A stretch of DNA of 64,000 nucleotides, taken from contig JAUVXU010000001.1 of the NCBI GenBank assembly GCA_030603445.1, positions 43,924 to 107,923 on the forward strand. The letters run 5' to 3'. Numbering within the stretch: position 1 is the stretch's first letter; every line of letters begins with the position of its first letter. The translations under genes and the position numbers were made by a program. The notes below the pieces were generated by a model. It saw only the letters and a list, made by a program, of their open reading frames with translations, ran no database searches and was not told where the DNA came from. Of this stretch, positions 3,127 to 62,932 are shown piece by piece. The DNA comes from Methanomicrobia archaeon (GTDB lineage: Archaea > Methanobacteriota_B > Thermococci > Methanofastidiosales > NM3).

Positions 3127-3213
3127 GTCAGGGTGGCCCAGCCTGGTACGGCGCCGGCCTGCTAAGCCGGTTCTTGAAAGAGATCCGGGGTTCAAATCCC
3201 CGCCCTGACGCCA
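3127..3213 (+). tRNA. tRNA-Ser (anticodon GCT), class II with a long variable arm and encoded CCA
   Basis: Sequence GTCAGGGTGGCCCAGCCTGGTACGGCGCCGGCCTGCTAAGCCGGTTCTTGAAAGAGATCCGGGGTTCAAATCCCCGCCCTGACG+CCA. There is a 7-bp acceptor stem (GTCAGGG/CCCTGAC), a 5-bp anticodon stem (CCGGC/GCCGG) with loop CTGCTAA giving anticodon GCT, about 15 nt of extra arm, and a T-loop GGTTCAAATCC. Confidence 0.9.
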
Positions 3214-24600: not shown

Positions 24601-25074
24601 CGCCATAGCAGCTGCAGTTCCGCCAGCAGAACGTATTGGGCCAGCAAAGTATATGGCAAGGTACTTTGAATTATCTGAGTTCTCCTTTATCCTTACGCTG
24701 GCTATTCCCTCAAGCGGGGCTGACACTATCCCCTCGGTAAGTATTGCTAGAGCTGTGCGTACTGCCTGCTCTGCTGCTTTTTCTATTGGAAGTGAATCAA
24801 ATTCTCCCTGGCAGATGCGGCCAGCAACCTTAAACGACACCTCCTCACGGGAGATGCCACTGTTGTCAAGTTCTCTAATTAATGCCGCAACGTCGCTTGG
24901 CCCTACAAGACTCTCCACTCGGCTTGCCATATCTTTTGCAACAGGGATCTCGACTTCAAACGATGGATCGCGCCCTTTTTTACGTGCATCTCTGGCTACT
25001 TTATAAAGGATCTCAGCCTCATGTTCTAGCAAAGAAAAATAAGATTCATACGACATTCCCATATCAGTCACCAA
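21673..25074 (-). CDS. polD2: DNA polymerase II (family D) large catalytic subunit DP2
   Basis: 1133 aa with the DP2 Cys clusters (CPSCKK…CPSCGEE, CVSCN…CSKCYGGRL). It is collinear with archaeal PolD large subunits. The size argues against an intein. Confidence 0.95.
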   Translation of the reverse strand: MVTDMGMSYESYFSLLEHEAEILYKVARDARKKGRDPSFEVEIPVAKDMASRVESLVGPSDVAALIRELDNSGISREEVSFKVAGRICQGEFDSLPIEKAAEQAVRTALAILTEGIVSAPLEGIASVRIKENSDNSKYLAIYFAGPIRSAGGTAAAMAVLIADYVRQKLHLDPYKVTQDEVERFIEEVELYNRSVHLQYKPPSEDVKMALENIGVEITGEKTDNIEATGHRDLPRIETNCLRGGAMLALCEGILQKSAKVLKITSKVSIVGWDWLKDVGTSKKSKKAEVGGVSENWTYLKDIIAGRPVFSHPMAREGMRIRYGRSRNTGFAGWGIHPATMYLVDSFLAIGTQMKTERPGKANVTAPVDSIEGPIVKLRNGSVLRVETSKQAQEICDKVDEILFLGDALIGYGEFLENNHVLVPSGYVEEWWVQELEEADASRKYQRYIDNPFDIGEKDALKISEELGIPLHPRFTYHWEDVNLEELRELIDWCSKGVVKNENLLLPLSKEKELLEKICLPHIVTKDGITIESETFRRCVNKEKFDDIIPLISLEGKSESEIVIEAIGKTLGIMMRSKCPITVGGRMGRPEKAKERTMSPPVHGLIPVGHAGGKTRSLIKARENNYVRVEVSNRQCPSCKKIIPKLICPSCGEETIPFAACNNKHCNMGKSKIFDTKIEQCPSCGRNMSDYSYQNIDIKTEMNQAITGLSIAMPKEVKGVIGMMSGEKFPEPIEKAILRAHNHVYVFKDGTMRFDATDVPVTHVTPQEISTSVNKMRELGYTVDEAGKPLSSEEQVVELKVQDIIVSDNGADYLLKCCSFIDDLLERVYKLPRFYNTENREDLVGHLVIGLAPHTSAGVLGRIIGYTCAKVGYAHPFFHASKRRNCDGDEDAIILLLDALLNFSRHYLPVHRGGKMDAPLVLTTRIDPEEIDKEAYNIDTSRRYPVSFYEQTQQYIHPSKCSLPTVADHLGSEKALYNLHYTLPTRDIADGPSVSAYKTLGSMAEKIDAQLELARKIRAVDLDDTAQRVIVSHFIPDIIGNLRSFSKQTFRCVSCNTIYRRIPLSGKCSKCYGGRLVLTVSKGSVEKYLQVSKDIIRNYKIDPYIAQRIDIIEKELESVFKEKVTQMTLADFGP

Positions 25075-26635
25075 AGTTCATTAAGACAAGGTTGTGTGTT
25101 TGTAAATTTATTATGGGGACCTTGGCCACATCAGGCGTTATGTTTCTCATCTTCTGAAAGCTCGTCTGTGACTGCCAACCACCAGAATTTATAAGAGTAA
25201 CGCCGCGATACACCCCATTTCCATTCATGTGGGTATGTCCTGTCTGAAAGATGTCTGGTGTTTCATCTATGCAAAGATAATCGCTGGTCTCAGGAATTAT
25301 CTGCGTCCCTTTCCCATATACAGGCGCAAGATGCCTCTTTCGCAGCATCTCTATCATGGGGGGGATAGGCTTGTTAATCTCGAAACCCGGGACTTGTGAA
25401 AGAAAGTCAAATATCGAGTCGCCATGGTACGCAAGACACTTTACGCCGTGTAGCGAGAAAAAAGAAGGATTAGACACCATATGTATGTTATCCATATCGT
25501 AAAGGTCGTAGGCAAACGCTTTTGGGATAGGTATTTGGGGATTCCCGCTTCTTGTGGCATCGTGATTTCCTGGCGATACTATAACTTCTATCCAATCGGG
25601 GAGATACGATAGCAGCTGTGCCGTTTTCTCATACTGTTTGTATATGTCAGTAATGCAGAGCTCCTTATCCTGATTGGGGTATATGCCAACCCCATCAACA
25701 ACGTCGCCGCAGATAACTATATACTTTATCTTTGATGCTATCTCTTGCTGTTTCTCGTTGCCTGTCTCTAGGCGCAGCCATTTGATGAAGCGCAAAAAAG
25801 ATTTTTCCATAAAATTATTGCTTCCAACATGCACATCTGAAGTGAACACCGCACCAATGTCATAAGGGGATACATTACGATTCCTGCCAAGTGCAATATC
25901 TGGGAATTCGAAGTTATTTGAAAATATTATATCTTCCCCCAACGCCCCAGAAACACCTATAACCTCATCGCACACAATGTACTTTGCACGTTCTAATAAG
26001 CGTTCCTTCTTCGTAGAAACAAGAACTTTTATCGTACCGGAAAGATCCTCAAGCTCCAACATTACGTTTCCGTTCTTAGTTGTCTTCTTACTTCGCACAA
26101 TACCGACTATCTTCACCTGCGATTTTAGTTCATTGGCCTTTGCATTTTTGATACTGACGAAATCGCGAAGTTCTCTGTGTTGCTTGAATATCTTAGATAT
26201 TCGTGTGTAACGATCCTTAAAAAGAGAGAGAAAATCCTCAAATTTTCCTTCAGAATCATCTTTTCCCGACACATCCTTAATAATCTTAATATCCTTATCT
26301 ACGTCCTTTGAAGGTATATGCTTTACTTTTATAGATTTTCTCTTTTTCTCGCTTTTGGGGACCTCGTCGGGAAGTTCTGCTCTTTGTTCCACTGATTCTT
26401 TTTGCTGTCCTGATTCTATACGTGGATAGAAATAATCCTCATAAACGTCTTTTGTAACAATAAATATATTATTTTTCTTCAAATGTGTCATGAATTCTAG
26501 AATAATATCTTCATTTGCTGCATCCTCAAGAAATTTAGCATATGCCTCTTCATTAAGAAGTACACCTTCGTCAAGGAACATGCCTGGTATGTTAATTTTA
26601 CAACTTTGTGTTGATGCCATAAGCCCTCTGCCCAC
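25064..26635 (-). CDS. polD1: DNA polymerase II (family D) small subunit DP1 (Mre11-like calcineurin phosphoesterase exonuclease)
   Basis: It has an OB-fold and a phosphoesterase domain with the metallophosphatase motifs (DVHVGS, GDVVDG, GNHD, GHTH). It overlaps dp2 by 11 nt and orc1 by 1 nt. Confidence 0.95.
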   Translation of the reverse strand: MGRGLMASTQSCKINIPGMFLDEGVLLNEEAYAKFLEDAANEDIILEFMTHLKKNNIFIVTKDVYEDYFYPRIESGQQKESVEQRAELPDEVPKSEKKRKSIKVKHIPSKDVDKDIKIIKDVSGKDDSEGKFEDFLSLFKDRYTRISKIFKQHRELRDFVSIKNAKANELKSQVKIVGIVRSKKTTKNGNVMLELEDLSGTIKVLVSTKKERLLERAKYIVCDEVIGVSGALGEDIIFSNNFEFPDIALGRNRNVSPYDIGAVFTSDVHVGSNNFMEKSFLRFIKWLRLETGNEKQQEIASKIKYIVICGDVVDGVGIYPNQDKELCITDIYKQYEKTAQLLSYLPDWIEVIVSPGNHDATRSGNPQIPIPKAFAYDLYDMDNIHMVSNPSFFSLHGVKCLAYHGDSIFDFLSQVPGFEINKPIPPMIEMLRKRHLAPVYGKGTQIIPETSDYLCIDETPDIFQTGHTHMNGNGVYRGVTLINSGGWQSQTSFQKMRNITPDVAKVPIINLQTHNLVLMNFGD

Positions 26636-27954
26636 TAAAGTTTATGCTGTATCGGGGGCACGTATGTAGCAACACGCTCTATTTTTCTGTCAAGCTCTAG
26701 AACACGTTTGGCTTGGGTGACCGGAACGCCCATACGTATTTCTTTAGTGCGGCCGTAGCGCCCTTTACTAACAACTTTTGCATTTAATATGCCTAGCATA
26801 TCTAGCTCGGATATAATATCAGATATTCTTCGCTGCGTCAATATCTCGCTTGAAGAAAGCTTACACAAGTCACGATAGACTGTATAGACCTCCCCAGTAG
26901 AAATTCCAGAAGGTTCATATTTTTCTAGTAATATACAGGAGTATAAAACAAGCTTTGATTGTATCGGCAGCGTTTTAACGACTTCTACTATTCTGTCCTG
27001 TTCTATATGGTCCTTTGCCTCACGTACATGTTTCTCGGTGATCCTTTTGCTTTTCTCGCGCTCTGCCAGTTCTCCTGCAACCCTGAAAAGATCAAGTGCA
27101 CGTCTAGCATCTCCATGCTCCTGGGCAGCATATGCAGAGCATAACGGTACTACACCAGTATCTATTAAATTAATTGACCTGCAAGACATCTTCGCACGTT
27201 GTGTGAGTATGTCCTGAAGCTGTATGGCGTCGTATGGCGGAAACACTATCTCCTCTTCCCCAAGCGAGCTTCGTACACGAGGATCCAGAAATTCTATGAA
27301 GTTGAGGTCGTTTGTTATACCGATAATGCTAACGCGCGCGTTAACAAGATCAGAGTTTACGCGTGTAAGGTTATATAATACTTCATCGCTCCCCTTTCGA
27401 AGCAATCTATCGATCTCATCGAGAACTATTATGACCAGGCGCTTTTCGCGATCCAGTGTTGAAAAGAACGTGTCATACACCTTATCCGTGGGCCACCCTG
27501 TTAAGGGTATGGACTGCCCAAAATATTCACCCAACTTCGCCAAAAGACGGTATTGTGTATCAACTATTTCACAGTTCATATAAATAAACCAGACTGGATA
27601 ATCATTATCAGTAACAGCAGAGTAGTCGGGAACTATATTATTGTCTCGAAAAGTCTTTGAAAAGAATTTCCCGCCGATCTTTTTGACAAGTGCTTTGCCA
27701 ATATGTTTAACAACAGCTGTTTTTCCAGTACCTGTCTTTCCATACACAAATATATTAGAAGGCGTTTCTCCCTTGAAAACGGATACTAGTATAGCTGCTA
27801 CCTCTTCTATTTGACGCTGTCTATGAGGTAGTTGATCAGGCGTATAAGAATGACGTAAAACCTCTTTATTAATAAAAATGCGTTCATTGCTTAAAAGTTC
27901 ATCAAATAAACAGTCTAGACTCTTTTGGTTGTTCATCATTGCACCTGGTTCCAC
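26635..27954 (-). CDS. orc1: Orc1/Cdc6 replication initiator
   Basis: AAA+ fold with Walker A YGKTGTGKTA, Walker B IIVLDEID, and a C-terminal winged helix. It is adjacent to the ORB-containing origin. Confidence 0.95.
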   Translation of the reverse strand: MEPGAMMNNQKSLDCLFDELLSNERIFINKEVLRHSYTPDQLPHRQRQIEEVAAILVSVFKGETPSNIFVYGKTGTGKTAVVKHIGKALVKKIGGKFFSKTFRDNNIVPDYSAVTDNDYPVWFIYMNCEIVDTQYRLLAKLGEYFGQSIPLTGWPTDKVYDTFFSTLDREKRLVIIVLDEIDRLLRKGSDEVLYNLTRVNSDLVNARVSIIGITNDLNFIEFLDPRVRSSLGEEEIVFPPYDAIQLQDILTQRAKMSCRSINLIDTGVVPLCSAYAAQEHGDARRALDLFRVAGELAEREKSKRITEKHVREAKDHIEQDRIVEVVKTLPIQSKLVLYSCILLEKYEPSGISTGEVYTVYRDLCKLSSSEILTQRRISDIISELDMLGILNAKVVSKGRYGRTKEIRMGVPVTQAKRVLELDRKIERVATYVPPIQHKL

Positions 27955-28292
27955 TAGAAACGGTCCTTTTTATATATTTCCTCTACCCCTTTGTTTCCAA
28001 TGGAAAATTATAATAGAACACCATATTATAAGATATTTTAAGATATTATTAAATGAGGCAGTCCTTCATTTCCAGTGGAACATTTTTTACGAAATTTGGT
28101 TGATTTGCGCTTCAGAAAATGTAATTGCGAAAACTATTTATAGATAGAATGAAATAAGCTTTTAGAACCTTTTTTTATTACAATAATAAAGCATTAAAAA
28201 ATCTTTTTATTATTCTACTCCACTGGAAACGAAGGGGTAGGGGTCAAGCATAATTTAAAAAGGTTTATTAACTAAAATATATTATAAATCGT
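27955..28292. other. Chromosomal replication origin (oriC): inverted ORB elements flanking an AT-rich duplex-unwinding element
   Basis: There is a mini-ORB GTTTCCAATGGAAAA (27993–28007). ORB at 28058–28082 reads, on the minus strand, GTTCCACTGGAAATGAAGGAC. ORB at 28218–28245 reads CTCCACTGGAAACGAAGGGGTAGGGGTC on the plus strand. Between them lies about 130 bp of more than 75% A+T. This is the canonical archaeal origin architecture directly upstream of orc1/cdc6. Confidence 0.8.
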
Positions 28293-47092: not shown

Positions 47093-48106
47093 TTAATACT
47101 CATAGGTATCTGCTTCTTCTATTATTGCAACTAGTAGATCTATAAGGGATTTGATATCATTGATATCAATTATCTCATTGCCAGTATGCATGTACCTTAA
47201 TGGAATGAGAAGTGCAACAGTTGGTATACCGCCGTTTGCAGTATGTATTGGGGACGCATCCGTTCCACCTTTTGAGATGTCATATTGTAGAGTGATTTTA
47301 TGGGATTTTGCAATACCTTCTATAAATTCGCGCATTTTAGGTGAAAGAATATACTTATCATCTTTTAGAGTCATTGCAGGCCCGCCGCCAAGCACGGTGT
47401 TAATATCCCTTGCTTCTTTTTTTTGCGGAGTGTCATAAGCGAAGGTGACATCAACTGCAATGGCAATATCTGGCTTTTGCATTTGTGCTGCTACCTTTGC
47501 TCCCCTGGTGCCTACTTCCTCTTGGCTGGATGCGACCGCTATTAGTGTTCCAGGAAAAGATATCACTTTCTGGAATGCTTCAAGCATTGCACAAAGCCCT
47601 GCCCTGTTGTCAAATGATTTAGACACGTAACGAGATCCAAGCAGCTTTTCAAAAGAGGGCATCCTCGTTATTGGGCTCCCTATTTTTATATTAAGGTCTT
47701 CGAGATCCTCTTTGTTCTTTGCCCCAACGTCTATGTAAAGGTCCTTTAATTCTAGTTTTTCGTTTTTTGGAATGTCCCTTATTTGTATTATTCCAGTAAC
47801 AGATGGGCCAATGTGCACCCTTGAACCTAAGAGCTCGCTTGGGGATTGATGTCCTATGCTATCAAAGAAGATGAATCCTTTTTCATCAATATAGCGCACC
47901 ATTCCGCCAACTTCGTCCATGTGGGCACTAATTAGCATTGTAGGGCCGGGACGAGTTCCTTTCTTTGTCATCATAACGTTTCCTATAGAATCGCTTTCTA
48001 TGGAATCTGCCACGCCTTTCATCTCTTTTTTTATTAAGGATGCCACATTAGACTCATTACCTGAAACACCCTTTGCATTACATAATTTTCTTAATAGTTG
48101 TTCCAT
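47093..48106 (-). CDS. M42-family (TET/FrvX) aminopeptidase, paralog 1
   Basis: The M42 metal-ligand context is present (…SAHMDEVGGMV…, EEVGTRGA). The start is trimmed to MEQLLRKL, giving a TAATG overlap with the upstream stop. Confidence 0.85.
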   Translation of the reverse strand: MEQLLRKLCNAKGVSGNESNVASLIKKEMKGVADSIESDSIGNVMMTKKGTRPGPTMLISAHMDEVGGMVRYIDEKGFIFFDSIGHQSPSELLGSRVHIGPSVTGIIQIRDIPKNEKLELKDLYIDVGAKNKEDLEDLNIKIGSPITRMPSFEKLLGSRYVSKSFDNRAGLCAMLEAFQKVISFPGTLIAVASSQEEVGTRGAKVAAQMQKPDIAIAVDVTFAYDTPQKKEARDINTVLGGGPAMTLKDDKYILSPKMREFIEGIAKSHKITLQYDISKGGTDASPIHTANGGIPTVALLIPLRYMHTGNEIIDINDIKSLIDLLVAIIEEADTYEY

Positions 48107-49098
48107 TATATCCCCTCCACTAGACGCAATGATGCTGCCATTATAAGTTTTGAAGTGTAATTTATGTCTTTTTTGCTTGCTACAGCGCATGGCGAATGAA
48201 TATACCTGCAAGCTGTTGCGATAACGCCGCTTGGAGTGCCGTTTTCAAGATGAAAGGCACCGGCATCAGTACCGCCGGCAAAAGGTTTTTTGTATTGGTA
48301 GGGAATATCGTTTTCATATGCAGCAGCTTCAATGGATTCACGTAACAGTTTGTCAGCTATAAGAGTATTATCGGAGATTGTTATAGCAGGGCCGTTTCCC
48401 ATAACAGGCATACGTTCTTCCTTGGCCAACCCTGGAAAATCCAAAGCAAAGGTTCCCTCACACGCAATTGCATAGTCACAATTTACTTTTGTTCGTGCAA
48501 CCATGGCACCTCTTGTCCCTATTTCTTCTTGAACAGTAAAGATGCAGGTAATAGGAATTCCAAGCTGTGCTTTTAACATTTCTATAAGACATACGCACCC
48601 TATGCGGTCATCAAAGGCTTTTCCCATATATATATCGCCCTGCGACCTGAACGATGTTTCGAATGTTATCATATCACCTATTTGAACGTCTTCTGGGCCG
48701 ATATCGCCACAATCTATGCGCAGCTCGCTCTTTTTTACTGGAGAATCTTTCTTTTCCTTTGATTGTAGATGTAAAGGAGGGAACCCCACCACCCCAGACA
48801 AGCGTTTTTCTCCAATAGATACTACAGCCCCAGGAAGAAGATCATCCCTTATACCGCCGACCGTATCGAAGTCTATTATTCCATTTTCTTCAATGGCCGT
48901 TGCCATCATACCCACCTCGTCCATGTGGGCAAGGAGGCATATGGATGGGCCACTTCCTGATTGTGTGGCATAGAGATTTCCCATGGCGTCGGTACGCATT
49001 TTGTCACAGTAATCCAATATATTGTCTTTTATTATGGAGCGCACATCGTTTTCGTATCCTGCTATGCCGCGGGCATTGGAAAGTTCTTTTAGTAGCAA
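48106..49098 (-). CDS. M42-family (TET/FrvX) aminopeptidase, paralog 2
   Basis: …LAHMDEVGMMA…, QEEIGTRGA. Confidence 0.85.
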   Translation of the reverse strand: MLLKELSNARGIAGYENDVRSIIKDNILDYCDKMRTDAMGNLYATQSGSGPSICLLAHMDEVGMMATAIEENGIIDFDTVGGIRDDLLPGAVVSIGEKRLSGVVGFPPLHLQSKEKKDSPVKKSELRIDCGDIGPEDVQIGDMITFETSFRSQGDIYMGKAFDDRIGCVCLIEMLKAQLGIPITCIFTVQEEIGTRGAMVARTKVNCDYAIACEGTFALDFPGLAKEERMPVMGNGPAITISDNTLIADKLLRESIEAAAYENDIPYQYKKPFAGGTDAGAFHLENGTPSGVIATACRYIHSPCAVASKKDINYTSKLIMAASLRLVEGI

Positions 49099-50111
49099 GA
49101 GAATTCCTCCAAAAAAGGTGCATCCAACGATGATATGAATGATTTTAACAACATGGCTGATGCCTCCATATCCCTAATATCTGCCACTTCTGATGGAGTA
49201 TGCATATAGCGCACAGGCAGGCTTAAAAGAGCACCCGGAACGCCAGATTCTTGAATTGTGCGTAGGTTGGTCGGGGTTGCGGCAGGGTATGCTTTTATGG
49301 TGTGGGAAATGTTTTTTCTTTCTGCAATTTTCCTTAACCTATCTGATATGGTATTGTGAATGTTAGGCCCCACTCCTATTATTGGTCCACTCCCCAAAAC
49401 GCGCGTCTTGTTCTTATCAACGCCCTTCATATCACCATGTGTGGCATCAATTGAAATGGCAAACACAGGAGAGCAGAGTGCAATAGCACTTTGTACCCCT
49501 CTTGCCCCGACTTCTTCTTGAGAAGAAAATAAGAAGGCAATATTGTACTGGCTATCAATTATTTTAGAAAGGTGGCACAACACAGCACATCCTGCTCTAT
49601 TGTCTAGCGCCTTGGAGCATATCTTGGTCCCGCCCAAGCTGCGCAAGGGGGAATGGAAGGTAACTGGGTCCCCTATACGCACAAATCTCTCAAGTTCCTC
49701 TTTGGCCAAGCCAGTGTCTATTGGCAAATCTTGAAACTTAGGGATTTTATTTTCTTTGCATATGTGGGGAGGCGGGACACCTATGGTGCCGATAAGTTCC
49801 TTCTTACCATTTATTAATGCCTGTTTTCCAGTCATGATTCGTGGGTCTATTTTGCATATGGGCTCAAGGAATATATACCCATCATCGTCGATATGGCGCA
49901 CAAGGCCGCCTATCTCATCCATATGGGCATCAAGCAGTATTGTTGGCGCGTTTTTGTCCGCTTCCTTAATACAAATAAGATTCCCCATCGGGTCCGTCAT
50001 ATGGGACGTAAAATCACAAATCTTTAGGATGGCGTCAGATACATTGTGTTCATGCCCTGGGACGCCTGATTGTTCGGTTAATATTTTTAAATATTCAAAA
50101 AGAGAGGTCAC
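49089..50111 (-). CDS. M42-family (TET/FrvX) aminopeptidase, paralog 3
   Basis: …DAHMDEIGGLV…, QEEVGARGV. Confidence 0.85.
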   Translation of the reverse strand: MTSLFEYLKILTEQSGVPGHEHNVSDAILKICDFTSHMTDPMGNLICIKEADKNAPTILLDAHMDEIGGLVRHIDDDGYIFLEPICKIDPRIMTGKQALINGKKELIGTIGVPPPHICKENKIPKFQDLPIDTGLAKEELERFVRIGDPVTFHSPLRSLGGTKICSKALDNRAGCAVLCHLSKIIDSQYNIAFLFSSQEEVGARGVQSAIALCSPVFAISIDATHGDMKGVDKNKTRVLGSGPIIGVGPNIHNTISDRLRKIAERKNISHTIKAYPAATPTNLRTIQESGVPGALLSLPVRYMHTPSEVADIRDMEASAMLLKSFISSLDAPFLEEFSCY

Positions 50112-55660: not shown

Positions 55661-55909
55661 ATGGTGAAAAAGGAAATGGAAATGACACCTGAGGAAATAG
55701 AAGAAACAGATAGACAAAACATCAAACGTGTTTTCGAGGTTACAGGCCTATCGTTAAAAGACGACAAATGTGAAGATATCAGAAAGGCGATGCTTAAGGC
55801 TATTGCATTAAAACAAATCGCAGCAACGGCACTAGTTGACGGCGATGCAAAGGATCCTGACGTACTTGTAGCACTATATACTGTTGCATTATCTTCCCTT
55901 GTTAAGTGA
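55661..55909 (+). CDS. Small acidic hypothetical protein (82 aa)
   Basis: ORF whose stop overlaps the downstream start (ATGA). Confidence 0.35.
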   Translation: MVKKEMEMTPEEIEETDRQNIKRVFEVTGLSLKDDKCEDIRKAMLKAIALKQIAATALVDGDAKDPDVLVALYTVALSSLVK

Positions 55910-57030
55910 AAGTAATGGTATTTCGAAAATATTATGCTCTGATAGTAGTGGTTGTTATATTTGGGGCTTTATTATTTAGCTTTAATATACAAAGATATTT
56001 TGCCCCCCTCTCTTCTTTTGAAGATCCCTTGCAACAGGACAATGATTATTTTTCTATAGGGAAATATCCCTTTGGTTATAATGGGGCATGCATGGTTACT
56101 GTCGATGATGTTTCTTTTTGGACTTTGACAGAAGAGTTGCAATCATTACGAGAAATCACGCGATTGCATGGCGTGCATGCAACATATTTTGTTATACCGG
56201 CGCATGGTGGAGCAGCATATCCCATTTCAAATAACATGGAAGTAGTGGAATTACTGCTTAAATGCATGGGAGAGGGAGATGAAGTGGCCCTACACGGATA
56301 CACACATTCCCCCACCACCGAGCTTAAAGGAAAATCCAGGGCAGATCAAGAAGAGATAATACGCAAAGGATTAGCGGAACTGACAAATATATTTGGCCCA
56401 GTATATGGTTTTAGGCCGCCTGCATTTTGGAAAAATACAGCCACATATTCTGTGCTTGAGGAACTGGAGTTTTTGTACTGTGCATCTGCTTGTGTGTTTA
56501 ATGTGAATCCTTACCATCCTTTTGACACATTCTCTCCTTTCTTTGGAGAGGAGATCAACCTTATTGAGATCCCTTGTTTCCCTACCGATTATCTGGCAAA
56601 CATAACATCCGAGAACTCTTCTGAACAACTATTCAAACTCAAAACGCGTTTTGATGGCTGTTATGAAAAAGGTGCGCCATTTGTGTTTTTTTCACATTTG
56701 GAGACTCTTTTATATATTGATAAATCTTCGGGACGCTATGAGGGATTAAGTGCTCTTGATAATTTCCTTAGTTATACACACTCGCTAAATATGTGGATGC
56801 CCACTATGTTAGAATATGCAAAATGGCAGATTTTTTTAGAAGACATTAAAATAAGCTATAATATCTCTTCAAATAAGATTAATATTTCAATGATGTCGGA
56901 TGATGTCATTGATGGCATTACAATATATATGAATCTCCCCGATGACATCAATGATGTTACAATATCTTTTAATAACGTAGTTTGTTACAAATGCGATACA
57001 TGCTCCAAGAACGAGATTATTATTCTCTAA
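55906..57030 (+). CDS. Membrane-anchored polysaccharide deacetylase-like (CE4/DUF2334-like) protein
   Basis: An N-terminal TM is followed by TVDDV (a TFDDG-like motif) and ALHGYTHSP (an H-x-x-x-H-like motif). Confidence 0.45.
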   Translation: MKVMVFRKYYALIVVVVIFGALLFSFNIQRYFAPLSSFEDPLQQDNDYFSIGKYPFGYNGACMVTVDDVSFWTLTEELQSLREITRLHGVHATYFVIPAHGGAAYPISNNMEVVELLLKCMGEGDEVALHGYTHSPTTELKGKSRADQEEIIRKGLAELTNIFGPVYGFRPPAFWKNTATYSVLEELEFLYCASACVFNVNPYHPFDTFSPFFGEEINLIEIPCFPTDYLANITSENSSEQLFKLKTRFDGCYEKGAPFVFFSHLETLLYIDKSSGRYEGLSALDNFLSYTHSLNMWMPTMLEYAKWQIFLEDIKISYNISSNKINISMMSDDVIDGITIYMNLPDDINDVTISFNNVVCYKCDTCSKNEIIIL

Positions 57031-58268
57031 TAATATACTATTTTTTCTTTTATGTGTTCTATGGCCAAATGACCTTTGTATATTTTTTTCTCCGCTTTCT
57101 TGAGGTAAGTTCCCATGCCTCTTCCATTCTTGATAATATCTTCAATGAGGTCATTAACATCACAATACTTCCGTTTTCGAAATGAATATAGTTTTCCTTT
57201 TTCGACATAAGTTTTGGGATTGACGTGTTTAAATTTTGATACATTATCGTAGTTATCTATTGGGGGGCCAACATGTTTTTTAAATTCAGGAAGAGATTTT
57301 ATCTCAACGTCAATTGCCACTCCTCTTTCATAAACCCCATGTTTATATATGGAAAATCCATAATGTTCACACTCTTGAACAGTAGACTCTACGAACCTCC
57401 TAGCTTGGGCATAGAATGTAGATTCATGTACGTCTGTATAAAGATCTATTAATATTAATAATCCACTATCTACAGAGTCATATCCTTTTTTAGGGCCAAT
57501 AAACATCGTGTTGTCCTTTGTCTCTTCATAGGTGTGGCAGGCATCCATAAATAAGGAGAAAGAATTAAGAGATACAGCAGAGGCAACATTGCGTTTTGGG
57601 TCTACAGGGTCCACAACAATCAATGGGTCAGAGAATTCCTTTACTGGGTCTATGAAATTTATTTGGGTGCCTATTTTCCATTTTGTTGCATTAGCAACTA
57701 AATTGATAAACGTTCTATAGTGTATTATTAATAATTCACAAAGATATCCAGAAAATCCATTTGTCCTTGAATCTGCACCATATATTTTCTGTGCTTTTAA
57801 GAATCGTTTGAGTAATCTAACTTCATCCCTTTGCTCAGGCTTTAAATTAGCTAAGACATATTCCAAGTGAAAAGGCGTTCTATCAACAGCAGAAATAATC
57901 TCGGGCGCTGTTTGCACGTTGTAGCATGGAACTAATTCAACAGAGAATTTATCGACAATTCCCGATACGTAAGGATGTTCAGCATAGGATATTTTATATT
58001 GAATTCCAAGATGTCTGAATACAGATTTACCTATTTCAATGCCTTCTTTTACTAATATTCTTATCGGCGTATTAGGTGGGAAAAAAATGAAAATGTCCAG
58101 ATCTTTATCATTTTTTAGAAAAGTGTCTTTTGCTACCGATCCAACTAAAATTGATTCTTTGCCATAATCAGATTTTATATAGGAATATATTTTTTTATAT
58201 ATCTCGATGGCATTATCCTTTTCTTCATCGGAGGGTCGGATATTGTTTTTTATAGTATCTAGGTTCAT
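57027..58268 (-). CDS. cca: CCA-adding enzyme (archaeal class I tRNA nucleotidyltransferase)
   Basis: The nucleotidyltransferase motif is GSVAKDTFL…DLDIFIFF. The size and architecture match archaeal CCA enzymes. Confidence 0.88.
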   Translation of the reverse strand: MNLDTIKNNIRPSDEEKDNAIEIYKKIYSYIKSDYGKESILVGSVAKDTFLKNDKDLDIFIFFPPNTPIRILVKEGIEIGKSVFRHLGIQYKISYAEHPYVSGIVDKFSVELVPCYNVQTAPEIISAVDRTPFHLEYVLANLKPEQRDEVRLLKRFLKAQKIYGADSRTNGFSGYLCELLIIHYRTFINLVANATKWKIGTQINFIDPVKEFSDPLIVVDPVDPKRNVASAVSLNSFSLFMDACHTYEETKDNTMFIGPKKGYDSVDSGLLILIDLYTDVHESTFYAQARRFVESTVQECEHYGFSIYKHGVYERGVAIDVEIKSLPEFKKHVGPPIDNYDNVSKFKHVNPKTYVEKGKLYSFRKRKYCDVNDLIEDIIKNGRGMGTYLKKAEKKIYKGHLAIEHIKEKIVYY

Positions 58269-58816
58269 AGCTTAAACACCTTTTCATCGGAATACATTGG
58301 TCCATTTGGCGTGAGAACACTTTTTTTCAAATAAATTTTATTTACTTTGTCTTTACCAAGAACAGTATCTTTTAATGACACAATGATATCATTGGTCTTT
58401 TGTTTATTATAAACTTCCTTAACACGCGCAATCGTGATGTGAGGCGAAAATGGCCTTGTTTCCTTAGCAATACCTATTGTAGCAAAATTTGTATCTATAT
58501 TCTTGGATAATTCAAGCATACGGGGGCTGCTACAGCCCACCCATATTATTTTTGGATTTCGCGAATTCGGAAATGCACCAACTTTTTTATAATCAATTTC
58601 AAATTGGGATATATCATTGCATGATTTATTTATAGCTTCAATGATGTCGTTGATGTCATCGTAAGGTTTTTCTCCAATGAATTTCAACGTTATATGCATA
58701 TTATTTTTGGTTGTAAATTTGGCTCGTAAAATAGAATCAGGAAAGTTATACTTCATTTTTTTTATCTTTTCTTTTATTTCATCTGATAATTCTATTGAAA
58801 CAAAGAGGCGTGTCAT
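58265..58816 (-). CDS. thpR: RNA 2',3'-cyclic phosphodiesterase / 2'-5' RNA ligase (2H phosphoesterase, ThpR/LigT)
   Basis: There are two H-x-T/S-x motifs (HITLKF and HITIAR). The start is trimmed to MTRLFVSIEL, giving a 4-nt overlap with the upstream stop. Confidence 0.85.
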   Translation of the reverse strand: MTRLFVSIELSDEIKEKIKKMKYNFPDSILRAKFTTKNNMHITLKFIGEKPYDDINDIIEAINKSCNDISQFEIDYKKVGAFPNSRNPKIIWVGCSSPRMLELSKNIDTNFATIGIAKETRPFSPHITIARVKEVYNKQKTNDIIVSLKDTVLGKDKVNKIYLKKSVLTPNGPMYSDEKVFKL

Positions 58817-59289
58817 CTTATAACTCCATTTCCTCTTGATATTGGTATTTTTTCCCAAGGAAATATTATCCATTTGTCAGTTTCAAATACATAATAATCT
58901 GGATCTATAATACTATGTGATTTTTTTGCTATAACGGCTATTCTTATTTCTTTGGCGTTTTTATTACTCAAATGTTCTTTAATTGCCATAAGGGTTTTAC
59001 CAGTATCAGCGACATCATCAACAATTAAAACGTTTAAATTATCTATTTTATCGGTCAAAGGAACCATAATATTGGGTTTTTCTCTTCTTTTTTCTACATC
59101 TTTATAAAATTTTACATCAACAACCCTCATAAGAATATTATTTGAGATATGAGATAATCTTACGGCAGGAATAAGTCCTCCTCTTGCTACACCTACAATC
59201 ATGTCTGGCGTGAAGTCTTTTAGAATTTCATCTTTTAGAGTCCACACTGCTTCATCAATTTTTATCCAATCTAAATATTCTTTGTTCAT
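58813..59289 (-). CDS. gpt: Xanthine-guanine phosphoribosyltransferase-like purine PRTase
   Basis: Collinear with bacterial Gpt: VARGGLIP, the PRPP motif VLIVDDVADTGKT, and C-terminal DYYVFE…WIIFPWE. Confidence 0.8.
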   Translation of the reverse strand: MNKEYLDWIKIDEAVWTLKDEILKDFTPDMIVGVARGGLIPAVRLSHISNNILMRVVDVKFYKDVEKRREKPNIMVPLTDKIDNLNVLIVDDVADTGKTLMAIKEHLSNKNAKEIRIAVIAKKSHSIIDPDYYVFETDKWIIFPWEKIPISRGNGVIR

Positions 59290-59371
59290 ATCTATATCAC
59301 AAAATTACTCTAGTTTTCATTATATAAATATTGTCATAGCAAGGTTTATATATATTTTTAAGTTATACTAT

Positions 59372-59391
59372 GTCAAGTAAAATGACTTGAC
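59372..59391. promoter_or_regulatory. Palindromic operator-like element GTCAAGT-AAAATG-ACTTGAC at the start of the downstream HTH gene
   Basis: A 7-bp inverted repeat with a 6-nt spacer ends 12 nt before the ATG at 59404. Confidence 0.5.
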
Positions 59392-59403
59392 TTGGTGTTT
59401 GTT

Positions 59404-59805
59404 ATGAAATACTCTTTCAATTATGTGGAAAAATGGATAGATACAGATTATTTTGCTAATAAATTATTAGATATGAGTTATTTTACTAAAATTCAATTAA
59501 AAGATTACGTTTCTTACGTTTGGAACAAAGAATATGGAGATAATGTTACATATATCGAGTTAGCAAACAATAGAAATGTATCAAAACAGGCGATTTCTGA
59601 TAATATACGCCTTGCAAAAGATAATATTGACAAAGCAATCTCAACTTTTATTTTAGGTATTTACGCTAATCTCATCCCGTTGGAATCTATTGAAATATAT
59701 ACAGAATTTTTAGAGCTTTTGAAGGAAGCAAAAGAAAGCGAAAGTGAACGAGACTTTCAAAAAATGAGAAAAAGAATGATAAATGTTTTGGATGAATTAT
59801 TGTGA
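59404..59805 (+). CDS. Small HTH protein (133 aa), hypothetical regulator
   Basis: An HTH-like segment is present (TYIELANNRNVSKQAISDNIRLAKDNI). The sequence is AT-rich. Confidence 0.45.
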   Translation: MKYSFNYVEKWIDTDYFANKLLDMSYFTKIQLKDYVSYVWNKEYGDNVTYIELANNRNVSKQAISDNIRLAKDNIDKAISTFILGIYANLIPLESIEIYTEFLELLKEAKESESERDFQKMRKRMINVLDELL

Positions 59806-59808
59806 TAT

Positions 59809-59844
59809 CAATGATGTCATAATGATGTTATTGATGTCATCGAT
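59809..59844. repeat. Tandem short direct repeats CAATGATGTCAT / AATGATGTTAT / TGATGTCAT(CGAT) between two convergent genes
   Basis: Three consecutive copies of an AATGATGTYAT motif are read directly from the sequence. Confidence 0.7.
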
Positions 59845-59845
59845 A

Positions 59846-60457
59846 TTATAACTTGTTATAAATATATTCTTTCCCTTTTCGTTTTCTTGAGAGATATCCT
59901 TTTTTGTGCAGTGCTTTAAGTATTCTTGATATATGCCCTTTGGACATCTTTGTTTCTTCTACGATCATATCTGTGGTAATATTCGTTGAATACTTACTGA
60001 GTATTTCTTCTTCGAATTCTGTTAGTGTTTCCTCGTTTTGAATTATTTCTTTTTTAGAAACTATTGGTCTTTTATTTAAGGCGAAATCTATAAATTTTTC
60101 AGTTATTTTATTTTGGGACTCTTTTATGTCTTTTATTTCGTTTTGAACCATTTCTATTTCTTTTTTTGTTAAATTTAATTCATCTTTATATACAACTTTT
60201 AACATTTCATTATCCGTTTCCATTATTTTCTCTGCCAATTTATTTAGTTTGAATTCGTGTTTATCGCTTACTGTGTTAATATCTTTTAATTCCAGTTTTA
60301 TATCTTGTATCTCAGAAAATATGGTTCTTACGTCTGTTTTAAAGATTTGAAAGTCTTGGATATTTTGTTCTTCTAGCGTTGTCTTTATTATTTCAAGTTC
60401 TTTTTCTATTTTATTGTCTTCTTTCTTTTTTAATCCCAACAATGATAATAATCCCAT
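59846..60457 (-). CDS. Coiled-coil protein with a C-terminal winged-helix DNA-binding domain
   Basis: The N-terminal ~150 aa are heptad-rich (EKELEIIKTTLEEQ…). The C-terminus is a wHTH (TDMIVEETKMSKGHISRILKALHKKGYLSRKRKGKEYIY). Confidence 0.55.
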   Translation of the reverse strand: MGLLSLLGLKKKEDNKIEKELEIIKTTLEEQNIQDFQIFKTDVRTIFSEIQDIKLELKDINTVSDKHEFKLNKLAEKIMETDNEMLKVVYKDELNLTKKEIEMVQNEIKDIKESQNKITEKFIDFALNKRPIVSKKEIIQNEETLTEFEEEILSKYSTNITTDMIVEETKMSKGHISRILKALHKKGYLSRKRKGKEYIYNKL

Positions 60458-60491
60458 GAGTAAATAATTAATATTTTCCTATATATATCTT

Positions 60492-60618
60492 TCGATGATG
60501 TCATTGAAACTAGCATAATATTTGATATTTTTTTAATTAAAATGATATTTTTTAATTAAAACAATTCAATGATATCAATGATGTAATTTAATATTATTTA
60601 ACATCAATGATGTTATCG
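60492..60618. repeat. Cluster of AATGATGTYAT-family motifs (CGATGATGTCAT, CAATGATATCAATGATGTAAT, CAATGATGTTAT) upstream of the coiled-coil wHTH gene, extending into the rpiA 3' end
   Basis: At least four copies lie within 130 bp. The motif is the same as in the 59809–59844 repeats. Confidence 0.65.
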
Positions 60619-61259
60619 TGTGCGATTATTATTTTGCATGGTCGTGTGAATATACCATTTTCTACTACGCCGGGTATATTGTTTAATTTTTGTTCTAATG
60701 TTGGTGGGTCATTAATCATAATCTTTAGATCTATTATGAAGTTTCCATTATCTGAGATCACAGGCCCGTCTTTAGCTTTTGCTTCTCTTAGTATTGGTTT
60801 TCCTATTTTTTCTAATTTATTCATAACGGTGGTTAAGCTCATGGGTATAATTTCTATTGGGAGTGCAAAATTCGTTCCTAGTGTGGCAACGAGTTTTGAC
60901 TTATCAATAAGCACGTAGAATTCCTTTGCTGCATAATCTACGATTTTTTCTTGTGTTAGAGCTCCACCCCTCCCTTTTATTAGATGATTATGTGGATTGA
61001 CCTCATCTGCCCCATCAAATGCTACTTCTGGTAGGTGCTCTGGTAAACTTGTGATTCGTAGGTTATTTTCTATGCATAAATTATATGATTGGTAAGAGGT
61101 AGGTATAGCATAAAATTCCTCCCCTTGTTCTATGCGTTTTCTTAGAGCTTTAGCATAGAGTGCTATAGTACTGCCCGTACCTAACCCAATTACTTGCCCT
61201 TCTTTTGTTAAGTTTGCAGCATAATCAGCAACTTTCTGTTTCTGTTGTATTATATTCAT
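60594..61259 (-). CDS. rpiA: Ribose-5-phosphate isomerase A
   Basis: GLGTGST…, DGADEV…, KGRGGALTQEK are the RpiA signature segments. Confidence 0.9.
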   Translation of the reverse strand: MNIIQQKQKVADYAANLTKEGQVIGLGTGSTIALYAKALRKRIEQGEEFYAIPTSYQSYNLCIENNLRITSLPEHLPEVAFDGADEVNPHNHLIKGRGGALTQEKIVDYAAKEFYVLIDKSKLVATLGTNFALPIEIIPMSLTTVMNKLEKIGKPILREAKAKDGPVISDNGNFIIDLKIMINDPPTLEQKLNNIPGVVENGIFTRPCKIIIAHDNIIDVK

Positions 61260-61300
61260 ATTGGTAAAAACATTTTTATTATTTTTATATATATCTTATA

Positions 61301-62932
61301 TTGATGCAACATATACGATATTTTTCATTGATATTTATTTTTTTATTGTTTTTTGAATCATTCTCTTTTTGTGCATCTCTTGAATCGAATGAAAATGTAG
61401 ATTTAGCTTTGGATAGTGGAAAAATTGTAGTTTTATATTTTTGGCAATCTGATTGTTCTTCATGTGGTAGCGTAGATGTTTCTATGACATCTATAGAAAC
61501 AATGTATGGCGATAGTATTGTTCTTTTCAGGCTTAATTTAGATCAAGGGGAAATTGTGTTAGAAACACGTTATTCTGTCAGCGTTACCCCAACTGTTGTT
61601 ATTTTTGATAGTTTAGGTAGAATTTTTGATACTTTGGCGGGTGCTAAAACCTTATCTTATTACATTGATCGCATTGATGCAGCATTTGCTGCAGAGGGGG
61701 GATTTAGAGATGAGGCCAATAAATATTATGACAATGCTTTACTCTTTTTTAATATTGAAAAGTATTCCAATGCAAAACAGTACTTTACGAAGGCACGTGA
61801 ATTGTATTCAAAAATAGGCGATGTTACTAAGACCATATTATGTGACCAGTTTATTCAGAAATCCGATAAATATATGGATGCAGCATTATATTTGGAACAG
61901 GCCGATGATAATTTTTTGGAAGAAGATTACCTACTTGCTAAATCTAATTATAATGTTGCTTTATCTTATTATTTGAATTTAAACGATTTAGATAAGATGG
62001 ATTATTGTAGTTTACAAATTGATAAATGTGATTTGTATCCCTCTCTTGAAGAGAATATGATTATTGCACAAAGGTATGTGTATGAACATAAATATGCATC
62101 TGCAAAAGTAGCTTTAATAGAAATTCGCAATGGATATGAGCAGTTAGGTGAGACAGAGAAAGTTGTTGAAATAGAAAATACTATCAAATTATGTAGCGAC
62201 TATATCTTAGCAAACCAATATTTTTCAGATGCGACTGTAGCAATTAATAACAAAAATTACGAAGTTGCAATTTCTAATTTTAATGAAGCAAAAAATATCT
62301 ATATTTCTTATGGCGACGAGGAAAAAATAATGTTATGTGACCAAAACATTGCTATTGCAAATCAATTATTGGAATTGCAGGTATCAATTACGCCCCCCCC
62401 TGCTGGTTTAGGAACGGATTACAGTAAGTATTATCCTTATGTGGCATTCATAGTATTTTGTGTATTAATTATAGGCGGAATAATAATATATTATACTAAA
62501 AGAAAAAAGAATAAATCTGGTGTTTCATCTTCTTCAAAAGTCCCTGCAATTGACAGAATATCTAAACAGTTGGATATTTCTTTTGATAAAAATACAATTG
62601 AAGAAGCAGAAATTCTAAGCGAAGAGGAGGATAAAGAACCGTCTTTTATACCCGAGGACCCGTTTAATTCTTATAAAAGTACTACTATTGAAGCAAAAAA
62701 TGAGCTTCTTTCTAACTTTTTACAGTGGGCAGAAGAGCTTGTTAAAGAACTCGATAATGCAAATTCAAAGGATTATTTTATATATCGTGACAAATTGGAT
62801 CAATTGTATTCTTTTTTCACACGTTCTTTTAGCTCGGATGAAGCATATCTTGACAAAGACCTACTTTCCTTGGTAAATGAACGCATTCATATTTGTCAAA
62901 CAAAGCTTACTGACTTGATAGACATAATATGA
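61301..62932 (+). CDS. Secreted/membrane-anchored TPR-like repeat protein with a C-terminal TM and acidic cytoplasmic tail
   Basis: It has a signal peptide and repeated ~34-aa Tyr/Ala/Asn-rich helical hairpins (…ANKYYDNALLFFNIEKYSNAKQYFTKARELYSK…). The TM is YVAFIVFCVLIIGGIIIYY. Confidence 0.5.
   Translation: MMQHIRYFSLIFIFLLFFESFSFCASLESNENVDLALDSGKIVVLYFWQSDCSSCGSVDVSMTSIETMYGDSIVLFRLNLDQGEIVLETRYSVSVTPTVVIFDSLGRIFDTLAGAKTLSYYIDRIDAAFAAEGGFRDEANKYYDNALLFFNIEKYSNAKQYFTKARELYSKIGDVTKTILCDQFIQKSDKYMDAALYLEQADDNFLEEDYLLAKSNYNVALSYYLNLNDLDKMDYCSLQIDKCDLYPSLEENMIIAQRYVYEHKYASAKVALIEIRNGYEQLGETEKVVEIENTIKLCSDYILANQYFSDATVAINNKNYEVAISNFNEAKNIYISYGDEEKIMLCDQNIAIANQLLELQVSITPPPAGLGTDYSKYYPYVAFIVFCVLIIGGIIIYYTKRKKNKSGVSSSSKVPAIDRISKQLDISFDKNTIEEAEILSEEEDKEPSFIPEDPFNSYKSTTIEAKNELLSNFLQWAEELVKELDNANSKDYFIYRDKLDQLYSFFTRSFSSDEAYLDKDLLSLVNERIHICQTKLTDLIDII

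Follow-up and report, generated by a model that had tools for sequence, protein, structure and literature searches.

Conserved TGAYRTCA arrays around a winged-helix gene of Methanofastidiosia-like archaea as a putative multi-site autoregulatory operator system

Which protein recognises the short repeats clustered around a winged helix-turn-helix (wHTH) gene in archaeal contig JAUVXU010000001.1, and what these repeats do there, is the question addressed here. The window, meaning the whole 64-kb stretch of DNA that was analysed, is a Methanofastidiosia-like segment of an archaeal chromosome, the nearest relatives of its proteins carrying the labels Candidatus Methanofastidiosia or Methanofastidiosum. 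The wHTH gene (59846-60457, minus strand) encodes a protein of 203 amino acids (aa) with a C-terminal winged helix; it is monocistronic and lies between rpiA (60594-61259, minus strand) and a convergent gene for a small helix-turn-helix (HTH) protein (59404-59805, plus strand). A first-pass annotation of this DNA had likened the repeats to iterons or centromere-like sites of a small partition or replication-control cassette, had asked whether the cassette was an indel, and had cautioned that copies within genes could reflect codon coincidence. On balance, and with moderate confidence, the repeat arrays are here read from sequence as a putative multi-site autoregulatory operator system of the adjacent, lineage-specific wHTH protein.

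The dispersed copies do exist, at or within a few bases of the positions first given for them. The repeat unit is the 8-bp pseudo-palindrome TGAYRTCA, with the weaker variants TGATGTTA and TAACATCA, the consensus being taken from an alignment of 95 intergenic instances in 11 loci. In at least 97% of instances T1, A3, T6 and A8 of the unit are conserved; G2 and C7 are so in 77%, being otherwise A or T, and A/T bases flank the unit. From one unit to the next the distance in this set is 9 bp (n = 38), 10 bp (n = 10) or 11 bp (n = 11). Units mostly occur in pairs at 9 bp, each pair forming a 17-bp composite palindrome, and the pairs themselves are 19-20 bp apart. When composite sites were defined as two TGAYRTCA units 9-11 bp apart with at most two mismatches, and their expectation was calculated from a first-order Markov model, 12 were found in the window against 0.65 expected, and 10 of these fall within the 3.7 kb of 56891-60616, a local enrichment of approximately 15-fold over the whole-window expectation. 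The longer word AATGATGTYAT has three matches in the window (0.16 expected), and all six window copies of TGATGTCAT are located between 56901 and 60496. The existence, enrichment and architecture of the sites are thereby established.

Regarding the intergenic sites, arrays occupy the same three places in all orthologous loci covering them; the comparison set comprises 9-11 distinct loci, and the count given for each feature includes only the loci that span it. The distal array consists of four units at 60570, 60579, 60599 and 60608 (60570..60616), lies over the last codons and the stop of rpiA and reads TGATATCA-A-TGATGTAA, a 12-bp gap, and TAACATCA-A-TGATGTTA; an array of four to six units covers the rpiA stop in 9/9 loci. 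A promoter-proximal unit, TGATGTCA (60496..60503), stands directly upstream of the putative transcription factor B recognition element (BRE; CGAAA, 60489-60494) of the wHTH gene, which is followed by a putative TATA box (60480-60488), both assigned by eye from the archaeal promoter consensus. The block CAATGAYRTCATCGAAAnnTAT(A/T)TAT, in which the proximal unit abuts the BRE and TATA box, is kept in 9/9 loci; in six of the nine, exactly 74 bp separate the proximal unit from the last unit of the distal array. The wHTH start codon lies about 27 bp past the TATA centre, suggesting that the wHTH mRNA may be leaderless. Between the distal array and the proximal unit there is also a tandem, A+T-rich direct repeat of 18-19 bp (GATATTTTTTTAATTAAAA / GATATTTTTTAATTAAAA, 60521-60565), which was not seen in the other orthologous loci.

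The third array occupies the 40-bp gap in which the small and wHTH genes converge, stop codon facing stop codon. A tandem array had been noticed here from the outset; it holds four units, not three, namely TGATATCA at 59803, TGATGTCA at 59812, TGATGTTA at 59823 and TGATGTCA at 59832 (59803..59839), at spacings of 9-11-9 bp, the first of them including the small gene's TGA stop. Three to six units are present in this gap in 10/10 loci, with typical spacing again 9-11-9. The array is a large imperfect palindrome that folds as a hairpin on both strands, which raises the alternative that it acts mainly as a structure, be it a cruciform or a hairpin that serves both 3' ends as terminator or mRNA stabiliser, with the other copies being secondary. 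The gap arrays of all ten loci form long folds on both strands, with z-scores of -3.5 to -11, and the fold of the small-gene transcript in the window reaches -21.7 kcal/mol. However, nothing calls for a comparable hairpin at the other places where the TGAYRTCA unit recurs, namely the wHTH promoter, the rpiA stop and the interior of four genes, and it is the sequence rather than the pairing that is conserved, the units being invariant and free of compensatory changes. Furthermore, transcription termination in Archaea does not require hairpins, and no Rfam family matches the array. A mainly structural role is accordingly judged improbable. A C/D-box small RNA or another known RNA was likewise considered and rejected, the arrays having no CUGA D box (by eye) and the locus no Rfam match.

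An operator reading presupposes that the sites are kept by selection, and here the comparison between loci is informative. The order and orientation rpiA-wHTH-small-PRT-thpR-CCA-deacetylase-77-aa gene-DUF116 are the same in every locus spanning these genes, where PRT stands for the phosphoribosyltransferase gene (58813-59289, minus strand), thpR (58265-~58816, minus strand) encodes a ThpR/LigT 2',3'-cyclic phosphodiesterase, CCA denotes the gene of the CCA-adding enzyme (57027-58268, minus strand) and the deacetylase is a DUF2334/polysaccharide-deacetylase-like protein (gene at 55906-57030, plus strand). On the other side of rpiA lies a gene for a thioredoxin/TPR membrane protein (Trx/TPR; 61301-62932, plus strand). 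The proteins of the neighbourhood are 45-80% identical to their window orthologues, and intergenic DNA outside the arrays is unalignable at this divergence. The wHTH protein and the arrays nevertheless co-occur without exception in the 9-11 loci, and the sequence, number, spacing and position of the units are conserved across these divergent loci, one unit abutting the wHTH BRE and TATA box, which bears out the earlier idea of protein-recognition sites and establishes their deep conservation. Gene order being identical across the orthologous loci, the cassette is neither an indel nor a mobile insert; its presence and its position do not vary, order and orientation being kept in all relatives, and the suspicion of an indel was dispelled by this check.

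Two side observations concern the same neighbourhood. The longest thpR open reading frame (ORF) of 202 aa would overlap the PRT gene by 61 nt (58813-58873), but thpR orthologues have 183 aa, and translation therefore probably starts at the MTRLF ATG (~58816), which would leave the usual 4-bp overlap in a PRT-thpR-CCA operon. In addition, a local G+C trough of 0.27-0.35 is centred on the wHTH and small genes (~57000-62000 of the window); the trough around the wHTH gene is kept in six of the loci (L001, L003, L005, L006, L008 and L009) whatever their overall G+C (0.37-0.49, in genomes of 0.37-0.50), and may simply reflect the K/E/I/N-rich composition of the wHTH and small proteins.

Sites of the same kind are also found within coding sequences. 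In thpR, a composite site TGATGTCG-T-TGATGTCA (units 58642/58651; 58642..58658) encodes DDINDII around residue 55, and at least one unit is present at these codons in 9/9 loci; the copy reported earlier in this gene is thus real, although it lies at 58638-58661 rather than at 58624-58650. A single unit TGATATCA (58384..58391, encoding NDII) is found at about residues 140-143 of the same protein, where 9/9 loci have one or two units. The CCA-adding enzyme gene carries a degenerate composite site, TGAGGTCA-T-TAACATCA (units 57146/57155; 57146..57162), at about residue 370 near the C-terminus (DVNDLIE), and good sites of one to three units occupy the same codons in six of the seven other loci covering the gene. 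Two sites are present in the C-terminal part of the deacetylase-like gene (together 56891..56959), the first being TGATGTCG-GA-TGATGTCA(-T-TGATGGCA) with units at 56891/56901 and the second TGACATCA-A-TGATGTTA with units at 56943/56952; their position is less constant in relatives, where sites are found at about residue 215, 330 or 346. The C-terminus of rpiA also contains positionally conserved coding units. Every coding copy is in the frame xxT-GAY-RTC-Axx, and the copies therefore encode D-D-[IV]-[NI]-D-[IV]-I; a frame beginning at the first base of the unit would open with a TGA stop codon.

It is this shared frame that would be expected if the copies were an artefact, whether of chance or of codon usage, in peptides rich in Asp, Asn, Ile and Val and in a genome rich in A+T. 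A perfect composite site in the unrelated gene of an M42 peptidase (TGATATCATTGATATCA, 47152-47168), outside the locus, is in keeping with such an artefact: it belongs to the codons for the C-terminal IIDINDIK of an aminopeptidase, the first of three paralogues in tandem (47093-50111), shows that chance or peptide-driven copies can occur, and is itself either such a copy or an additional target. Within the window alone, moreover, no single gene reached significance in a synonymous test. Across 8-9 genomes, codons were shuffled synonymously within each gene, with protein and codon usage kept (300 shuffles), and the summed counts of paired half-sites exceeded expectation in thpR (45 vs 21.4), the CCA enzyme gene (16 vs 4.4), the deacetylase-like gene (22 vs 5.6) and rpiA (13 vs 3.5). 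The observed count was reached by none of the 300 shuffles in any of the four genes, whereas five control genes (wHTH, PRT, Trx/TPR, DUF116 and an 82-aa gene) had no half-site excess over their synonymous shuffles. There was no enrichment either in 49 other window genes (10 paired half-sites observed, 9.4 expected), and relative to these 49 the four locus genes are about 14-fold denser in paired half-sites. Furthermore, the Methanofastidiosia ThpR proteins read DDINDII and DDVNDII at two positions at which TEEQAEEI and DKLGLAMK stand in the Pyrococcus homologues of solved structure. The D-D-I-N-D-I-I peptides are thus specific to the lineage, and it is plausible that the DNA sites imposed them. 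Given the shuffles and the lack of the peptides in Pyrococcus ThpR, the coding copies are not accounted for by codon coincidence, nor can it explain the intergenic arrays; an artefact is extremely improbable, the earlier caveat is largely answered, and a constraint at the DNA level on the coding copies is established.

If the sites are protein-binding sites, the wHTH protein is the favoured candidate. In an AlphaFold2 (AF2) model built from a 15-sequence alignment (mean predicted local distance difference test score, pLDDT, 82) a single helix takes up residues 12-128 and is joined by a disordered linker to a minimal wHTH (147-202), made up of three helices and a beta-hairpin wing, at the extreme C-terminus. 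Homologues show no variation in the recognition helix, SKGHISR(T/I)LK, or in the wing, R-x-R-K-G-K-E (RKRKGKE here). The N-terminal MGLLSxLGxKK is nearly invariant and hydrophobic-basic; it has a helical hydrophobic moment of no more than 0.12-0.2, apart from one sequence at 0.41, and is modelled by AF2 with low confidence. Foldseek matches are confined to the wHTH and are generic (ArsR, MarR, MecI, AbfR2), and all Pfam scores remain under the curated cut-offs, as for MarR (PF01047, 21.6 vs 24.6 bits), MarR_2 (PF12802, 22.7 vs 27 bits) and DUF7343 (PF24034, 26.8 vs 27.6 bits), covering residues 159-199 only. The build is not that of the MarR family, in which the wHTH is embedded between N- and C-terminal dimer helices of a protein of ~140-150 aa. 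Only 16 homologues were found among 5.8 billion clustered proteins, a profile run against 1.84 billion representatives returned two matches below 1e-30, and exact-sequence look-up of the wHTH protein and of protein P0017 returned no record. By these searches the wHTH protein forms a narrow, class-specific family. The protein folds are shown at the level of such models.

Autorepression by cooperative, possibly looped, multi-site binding is considered the likeliest mechanism, somewhat better than an even prospect. The elementary site would be TGAYRTCA, and the 17-bp palindrome has the size suited to a wHTH dimer, so that one dimer could bind per composite site, one winged helix per unit in successive major grooves, with the basic RKRKGK wing over the A/T base between the units. 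Dimers on the distal array, on the unit adjacent to the BRE and TATA box and on the array past the 3' end of the gene would bracket the wHTH gene, the promoter-proximal unit being kept about seven helical turns (74 bp) from the distal array. The unit at the BRE and TATA box is placed where it could interfere with or assist transcription factor B (TFB) and the TATA-binding protein (TBP), and the bound dimers would most likely repress the wHTH gene by competition with TFB/TBP and/or by looping. The sites in thpR, the CCA gene, the deacetylase-like gene and the end of rpiA may extend the complex over ~3.7 kb, having been written into the host proteins as D-D-[IV]-N-D-[IV]-I peptides. We infer from this arrangement which protein binds which site, repression over activation, and looping.

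Several points weigh against a system of this kind. Adjacency is what assigns the sites to the protein, and because both the site sequence and the recognition helix are invariant there is no co-variation to compare. A plain autoregulator could do without conserved sites in four neighbouring genes, at distances of up to 3.5 kb, and without an array in the convergent 3' gap; this array would, besides, fold into a strong hairpin as RNA or DNA. One perfect composite site is found beyond the locus, at 47152, and the motif counts span the 64-kb window and ~10-20 kb around each relative.

The second DNA-binding candidate is encoded next door. The small gene starts at ATG 59404, giving 133 aa, and not at the TTG of the ORF list, and its product has no Pfam family. 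The small protein is 72-80% identical across loci and is, with PRT (73-79%), among the most conserved of the neighbourhood, most neighbours showing 45-67%. Its model is all-helical (pLDDT 72) with a sigma-70-region-4/YlxM-like HTH segment at about residues 29-78; the Pfam match to UPF0122 is sub-threshold (E = 0.011, 16.4 vs 22.7 bits), and the best fold match, to 1xsv (UPF0122), is non-significant (E = 0.26, probability 0.87). A perfect palindrome, GTCAAGT-AAAATG-ACTTGAC (59372-59391), is located between the putative TATA box (~59345-59355) and the start codon of this gene and overlaps its expected transcription start, at the promoter where GTCAAGT-N6-ACTTGAC had been noticed before; its core GTCAAG-N8-CTTGAC is invariant in the 9/9 loci covering the region, and the window holds no other perfect copy. 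As RNA, the palindrome would fold as a hairpin of -13.9 kcal/mol (z = -4.25). It is probably the auto-operator of the small sigma-4-like HTH protein, which would most likely act over its own transcription start.

The two proteins might, alternatively, be paired with the sites the other way round, the TGAYRTCA arrays being bound by the small HTH protein or by a factor encoded elsewhere, and the wHTH protein binding the GTCAAG palindrome or another sequence. The gap array touches the small gene, whose stop codon is in the first unit, the high identity of the small protein matches the invariance of the units, and adjacency is the sole tie between sites and proteins. On the other hand, the wHTH promoter is the sole unit-bearing promoter, and that of the small gene has a different, equally conserved palindrome; different palindromes at two promoters are the usual signature of two separate auto-operators. 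The exchanged assignment is therefore rather unlikely. A distant homologue of the small protein (55-57% identity) was also found at 6001-6387 of L018 and L019 (GCA_053940565.1 and GCA_053938645.1), in another gene context, without a wHTH partner and with neither DNA motif nearby, and is uninformative for assigning sites to proteins.

Regarding replication, the window contains a canonical archaeal origin of the Thermococcales type, but not at the repeats. This oriC (27947-28243) lies directly upstream of cdc6/orc1 (26635-27954, minus strand), which is followed by the genes for the small subunit DP1 (25064-26635, minus strand) and the large subunit DP2 (21673-25074, minus strand) of PolD. It has inverted repeats of the origin recognition box (ORB) type (TTCCAGTGGAAAC ... 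GGGG) around an A+T-rich centre, namely CCTCTACCCCTTTGTTTCCAATGGAAA / TCCACTGGAAACGAAGGGGTAGGGG, plus TTTCCAGTGGAAC and GTTCCACTAGAAA, and coincides with the minimum of the cumulative GC skew. Genes for RPA, RadA and RNase HII are found downstream of oriC-cdc6-polD, as a replication island. The motif locus is 29-32 kb from oriC and has no initiator gene, no ORB-like sequence and no turn of the skew at 57-61 kb. Iterons of a replication origin or of a replication-control element are in line with tandem 9-11-bp repeats in an A+T-rich trough, and similar GTGACATCA iterons stand beside a primase-helicase gene of two bacterial phage contigs; however, with inverted ORB elements beside cdc6-DP1-DP2 at about 27955-28290, where the skew has its minimum, this explanation is very improbable, and a replication origin at the motif locus was rejected. 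The phage contigs (IMG/VR; L020 8056-8208 and L021 198-512) carry six to seven GTGACATCA/TGATGTCAC repeats beside a VirE-type primase-helicase gene, which are likely phage ori iterons. They were the only viral contigs, both from bacterial siphophages, returned by a three-unit scan, and with no homologue of either protein in them a viral link was dismissed; the shared 8-mer core is unrelated convergence of a short word.

A partition cassette finds no better footing. No ParA/SegA, ParM, TubZ, ParB or Rep was detected among the window ORFs scanned (of 75 with 110 aa or more, about 60; most of the rest overlap scanned ones on other frames) or within 6 kb either side in relatives. Similarly, Pfam scans of the neighbours, and the called genes of five relatives (~6 kb each side), revealed no ParA, MinD or SegA, the neighbouring genes there encoding RpiA, PRT, ThpR, the CCA-adding enzyme, DUF2334 and the Trx/TPR protein. 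Neither the wHTH nor the small protein has a ParB-like domain, the SoPB_HTH match of the small protein (E = 0.059) being far below the cut-off, and the TGAYRTCA site is unrelated in sequence to the 16-bp parS palindrome. Iterated repeats at the promoter of the binder gene, as in ParMRC and TubZRC, are present (a distal array and a proximal unit, with 9-11-bp spacing), yet the wHTH gene is monocistronic and has no parM or tubZ in its operon. Thus neither the iteron reading nor that of a classical partition system is supported, oriC lying elsewhere and no gene for ParA, ParM, TubZ or Rep having been detected in the neighbourhood, and the same holds for the cassette proposed in the first-pass annotation.

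What the intragenic sites and the 3'-gap array do suggest is a role beyond the wHTH promoter. Because they are poorly explained by autoregulation and recall parS/ram/ricS and AspA/SegB, an organising or tethering role is kept as the main alternative: the locus would be an origin-proximal chromosome-organising or centromere-like one, at which the long-helix wHTH protein, bound to 8-10 clustered sites, bridges, tethers or positions the origin region as a functional analogue of RacA/ram, RicO/ricS, SegB or AspA, with autoregulation as a by-product. Many sites over 3.7 kb, conserved intragenic ones included, are seen also with parS, ram and ricS, and the locus is close to oriC here and ~30.7 kb from cdc6 on the same contig (JBTNGD010000049.1) of a second genome, the one further genome in which the distance was compared. 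The wHTH protein has a 117-residue helix and a conserved hydrophobic-basic N-terminal peptide opposite the DNA-binding domain; RicO has an analogous DNA-binding domain, coiled coil and membrane helix with nine origin-proximal 18-bp sites (bioRxiv 10.64898/2026.03.06.710092), and the archaeal centromere binders SegB and AspA likewise bind palindromes upstream of their own genes (PMC5120986). Against such a role, no ParA/SegA-type ATPase or other motor was found among the window ORFs scanned or within 6 kb in relatives, the N-terminal peptide, with its low hydrophobic moment, does not look like a classical amphipathic membrane helix, general synteny may be all that lies behind the conserved distance to oriC, and the wHTH family is restricted to one class. 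Overall, an organising role is possible though unlikely, and its specific form as a motor-less, Methanofastidiosia-specific system, with about ten sites hard-wired in four housekeeping genes ~31 kb from oriC, is likewise unlikely, and somewhat more so.

Whichever holds, the locus offers a clean, testable pair, consisting of an archaeal DNA-binding protein that is class-specific and uncharacterised and of an element and array that are precisely defined, in a lineage represented by metagenomes only. It is unusual in that sites are conserved inside four housekeeping genes near oriC and apparently shape protein sequences, the D-D-I-N-D-I-I peptides being a case of a DNA-binding code laid over a protein code, and this kind of architecture is met more typically in nucleoprotein assemblies (parS, ram, ricS) than at simple operators. 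Should the assembly organise the origin-proximal region, it would be a new type of chromosome organisation in the Euryarchaeota, where segregation is poorly understood; if the wHTH protein is an autoregulator only, it would be a modest addition to archaeal regulons.

Elsewhere in the window, tRNA-Ser(GCT) (3127-3213) is the sole RNA gene detected with Rfam or ARAGORN. A gene for a Fic/DOC-domain protein (18541-19779) lies in a stretch of 30% G+C adjoining ABC-transporter genes, and this stretch may be an island or a toxin-like element.

Among known systems, the autoregulatory reading has its nearest counterparts in the MarR, ArsR and BlaI-MecI repressors, including the archaeal AbfR2 and MJ MarR-like proteins. 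The C-terminal 56 residues of the wHTH protein superpose on their wHTH, and a palindromic operator of dimer size with one site at the own core promoter is common to both. Unlike these repressors, the wHTH protein scores below the Pfam gathering thresholds and has its wHTH at the C-terminus behind a 117-residue helix, whereas theirs is embedded in a helical dimerisation core, and the locus has 8-10 site clusters, among them conserved intragenic ones and a 3'-end array.

The helically phased 9-11-bp arrays flanking the promoter of the binder gene resemble those of the type II (ParR/parC) and type III (TubR/tubC) partition systems, whose plasmid-borne centromeres are iterated 10-12-bp repeats doubling as operators, and TubR is also a winged-helix protein, while ParR is of the ribbon-helix-helix type. 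In contrast to ParMRC and TubZRC, there is no ParM or TubZ gene here, the locus is chromosomal and syntenic rather than mobile, and its sites reach into neighbouring housekeeping genes. SegB of SegAB and AspA of the AspA-ParBA system of pNOB8 are Archaea-specific dimers that bind palindromes upstream of their own cassette, AspA being a wHTH protein that assembles into multi-dimer arrays (PMC5120986). However, segB always follows the segA (ParA) gene and aspA precedes parB-parA, with no such partner here, and homologue searches detected no sequence similarity of the wHTH protein to SegB or AspA.

KfrA-type plasmid proteins (PMC7821693) are transcriptional autoregulators with a globular DNA-binding head and a long alpha-helical tail. 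A DNA-binding head with a long helical tail is what the wHTH protein shares with KfrA, which is bacterial and plasmid-borne and has its head at the N-terminus, with no homology detected. RacA, which tethers the origin region of B. subtilis through its ram sites, combines a DNA-binding domain, a coiled coil and an anchoring peptide. The same three parts make up RicO, the origin-region tether of S. aureus that acts on ricS (bioRxiv 10.64898/2026.03.06.710092). Compared with RacA and RicO, the domain order of the wHTH protein is inverted, its terminal peptide is not detectably amphipathic, its sites lie within 3.7 kb where theirs extend over hundreds of kb, and its function is proposed from sequence. 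What the wHTH protein has in common with both is the tripartite build of a DNA-binding domain, a long helix and a short conserved terminal peptide, together with several specific palindromic sites near oriC.

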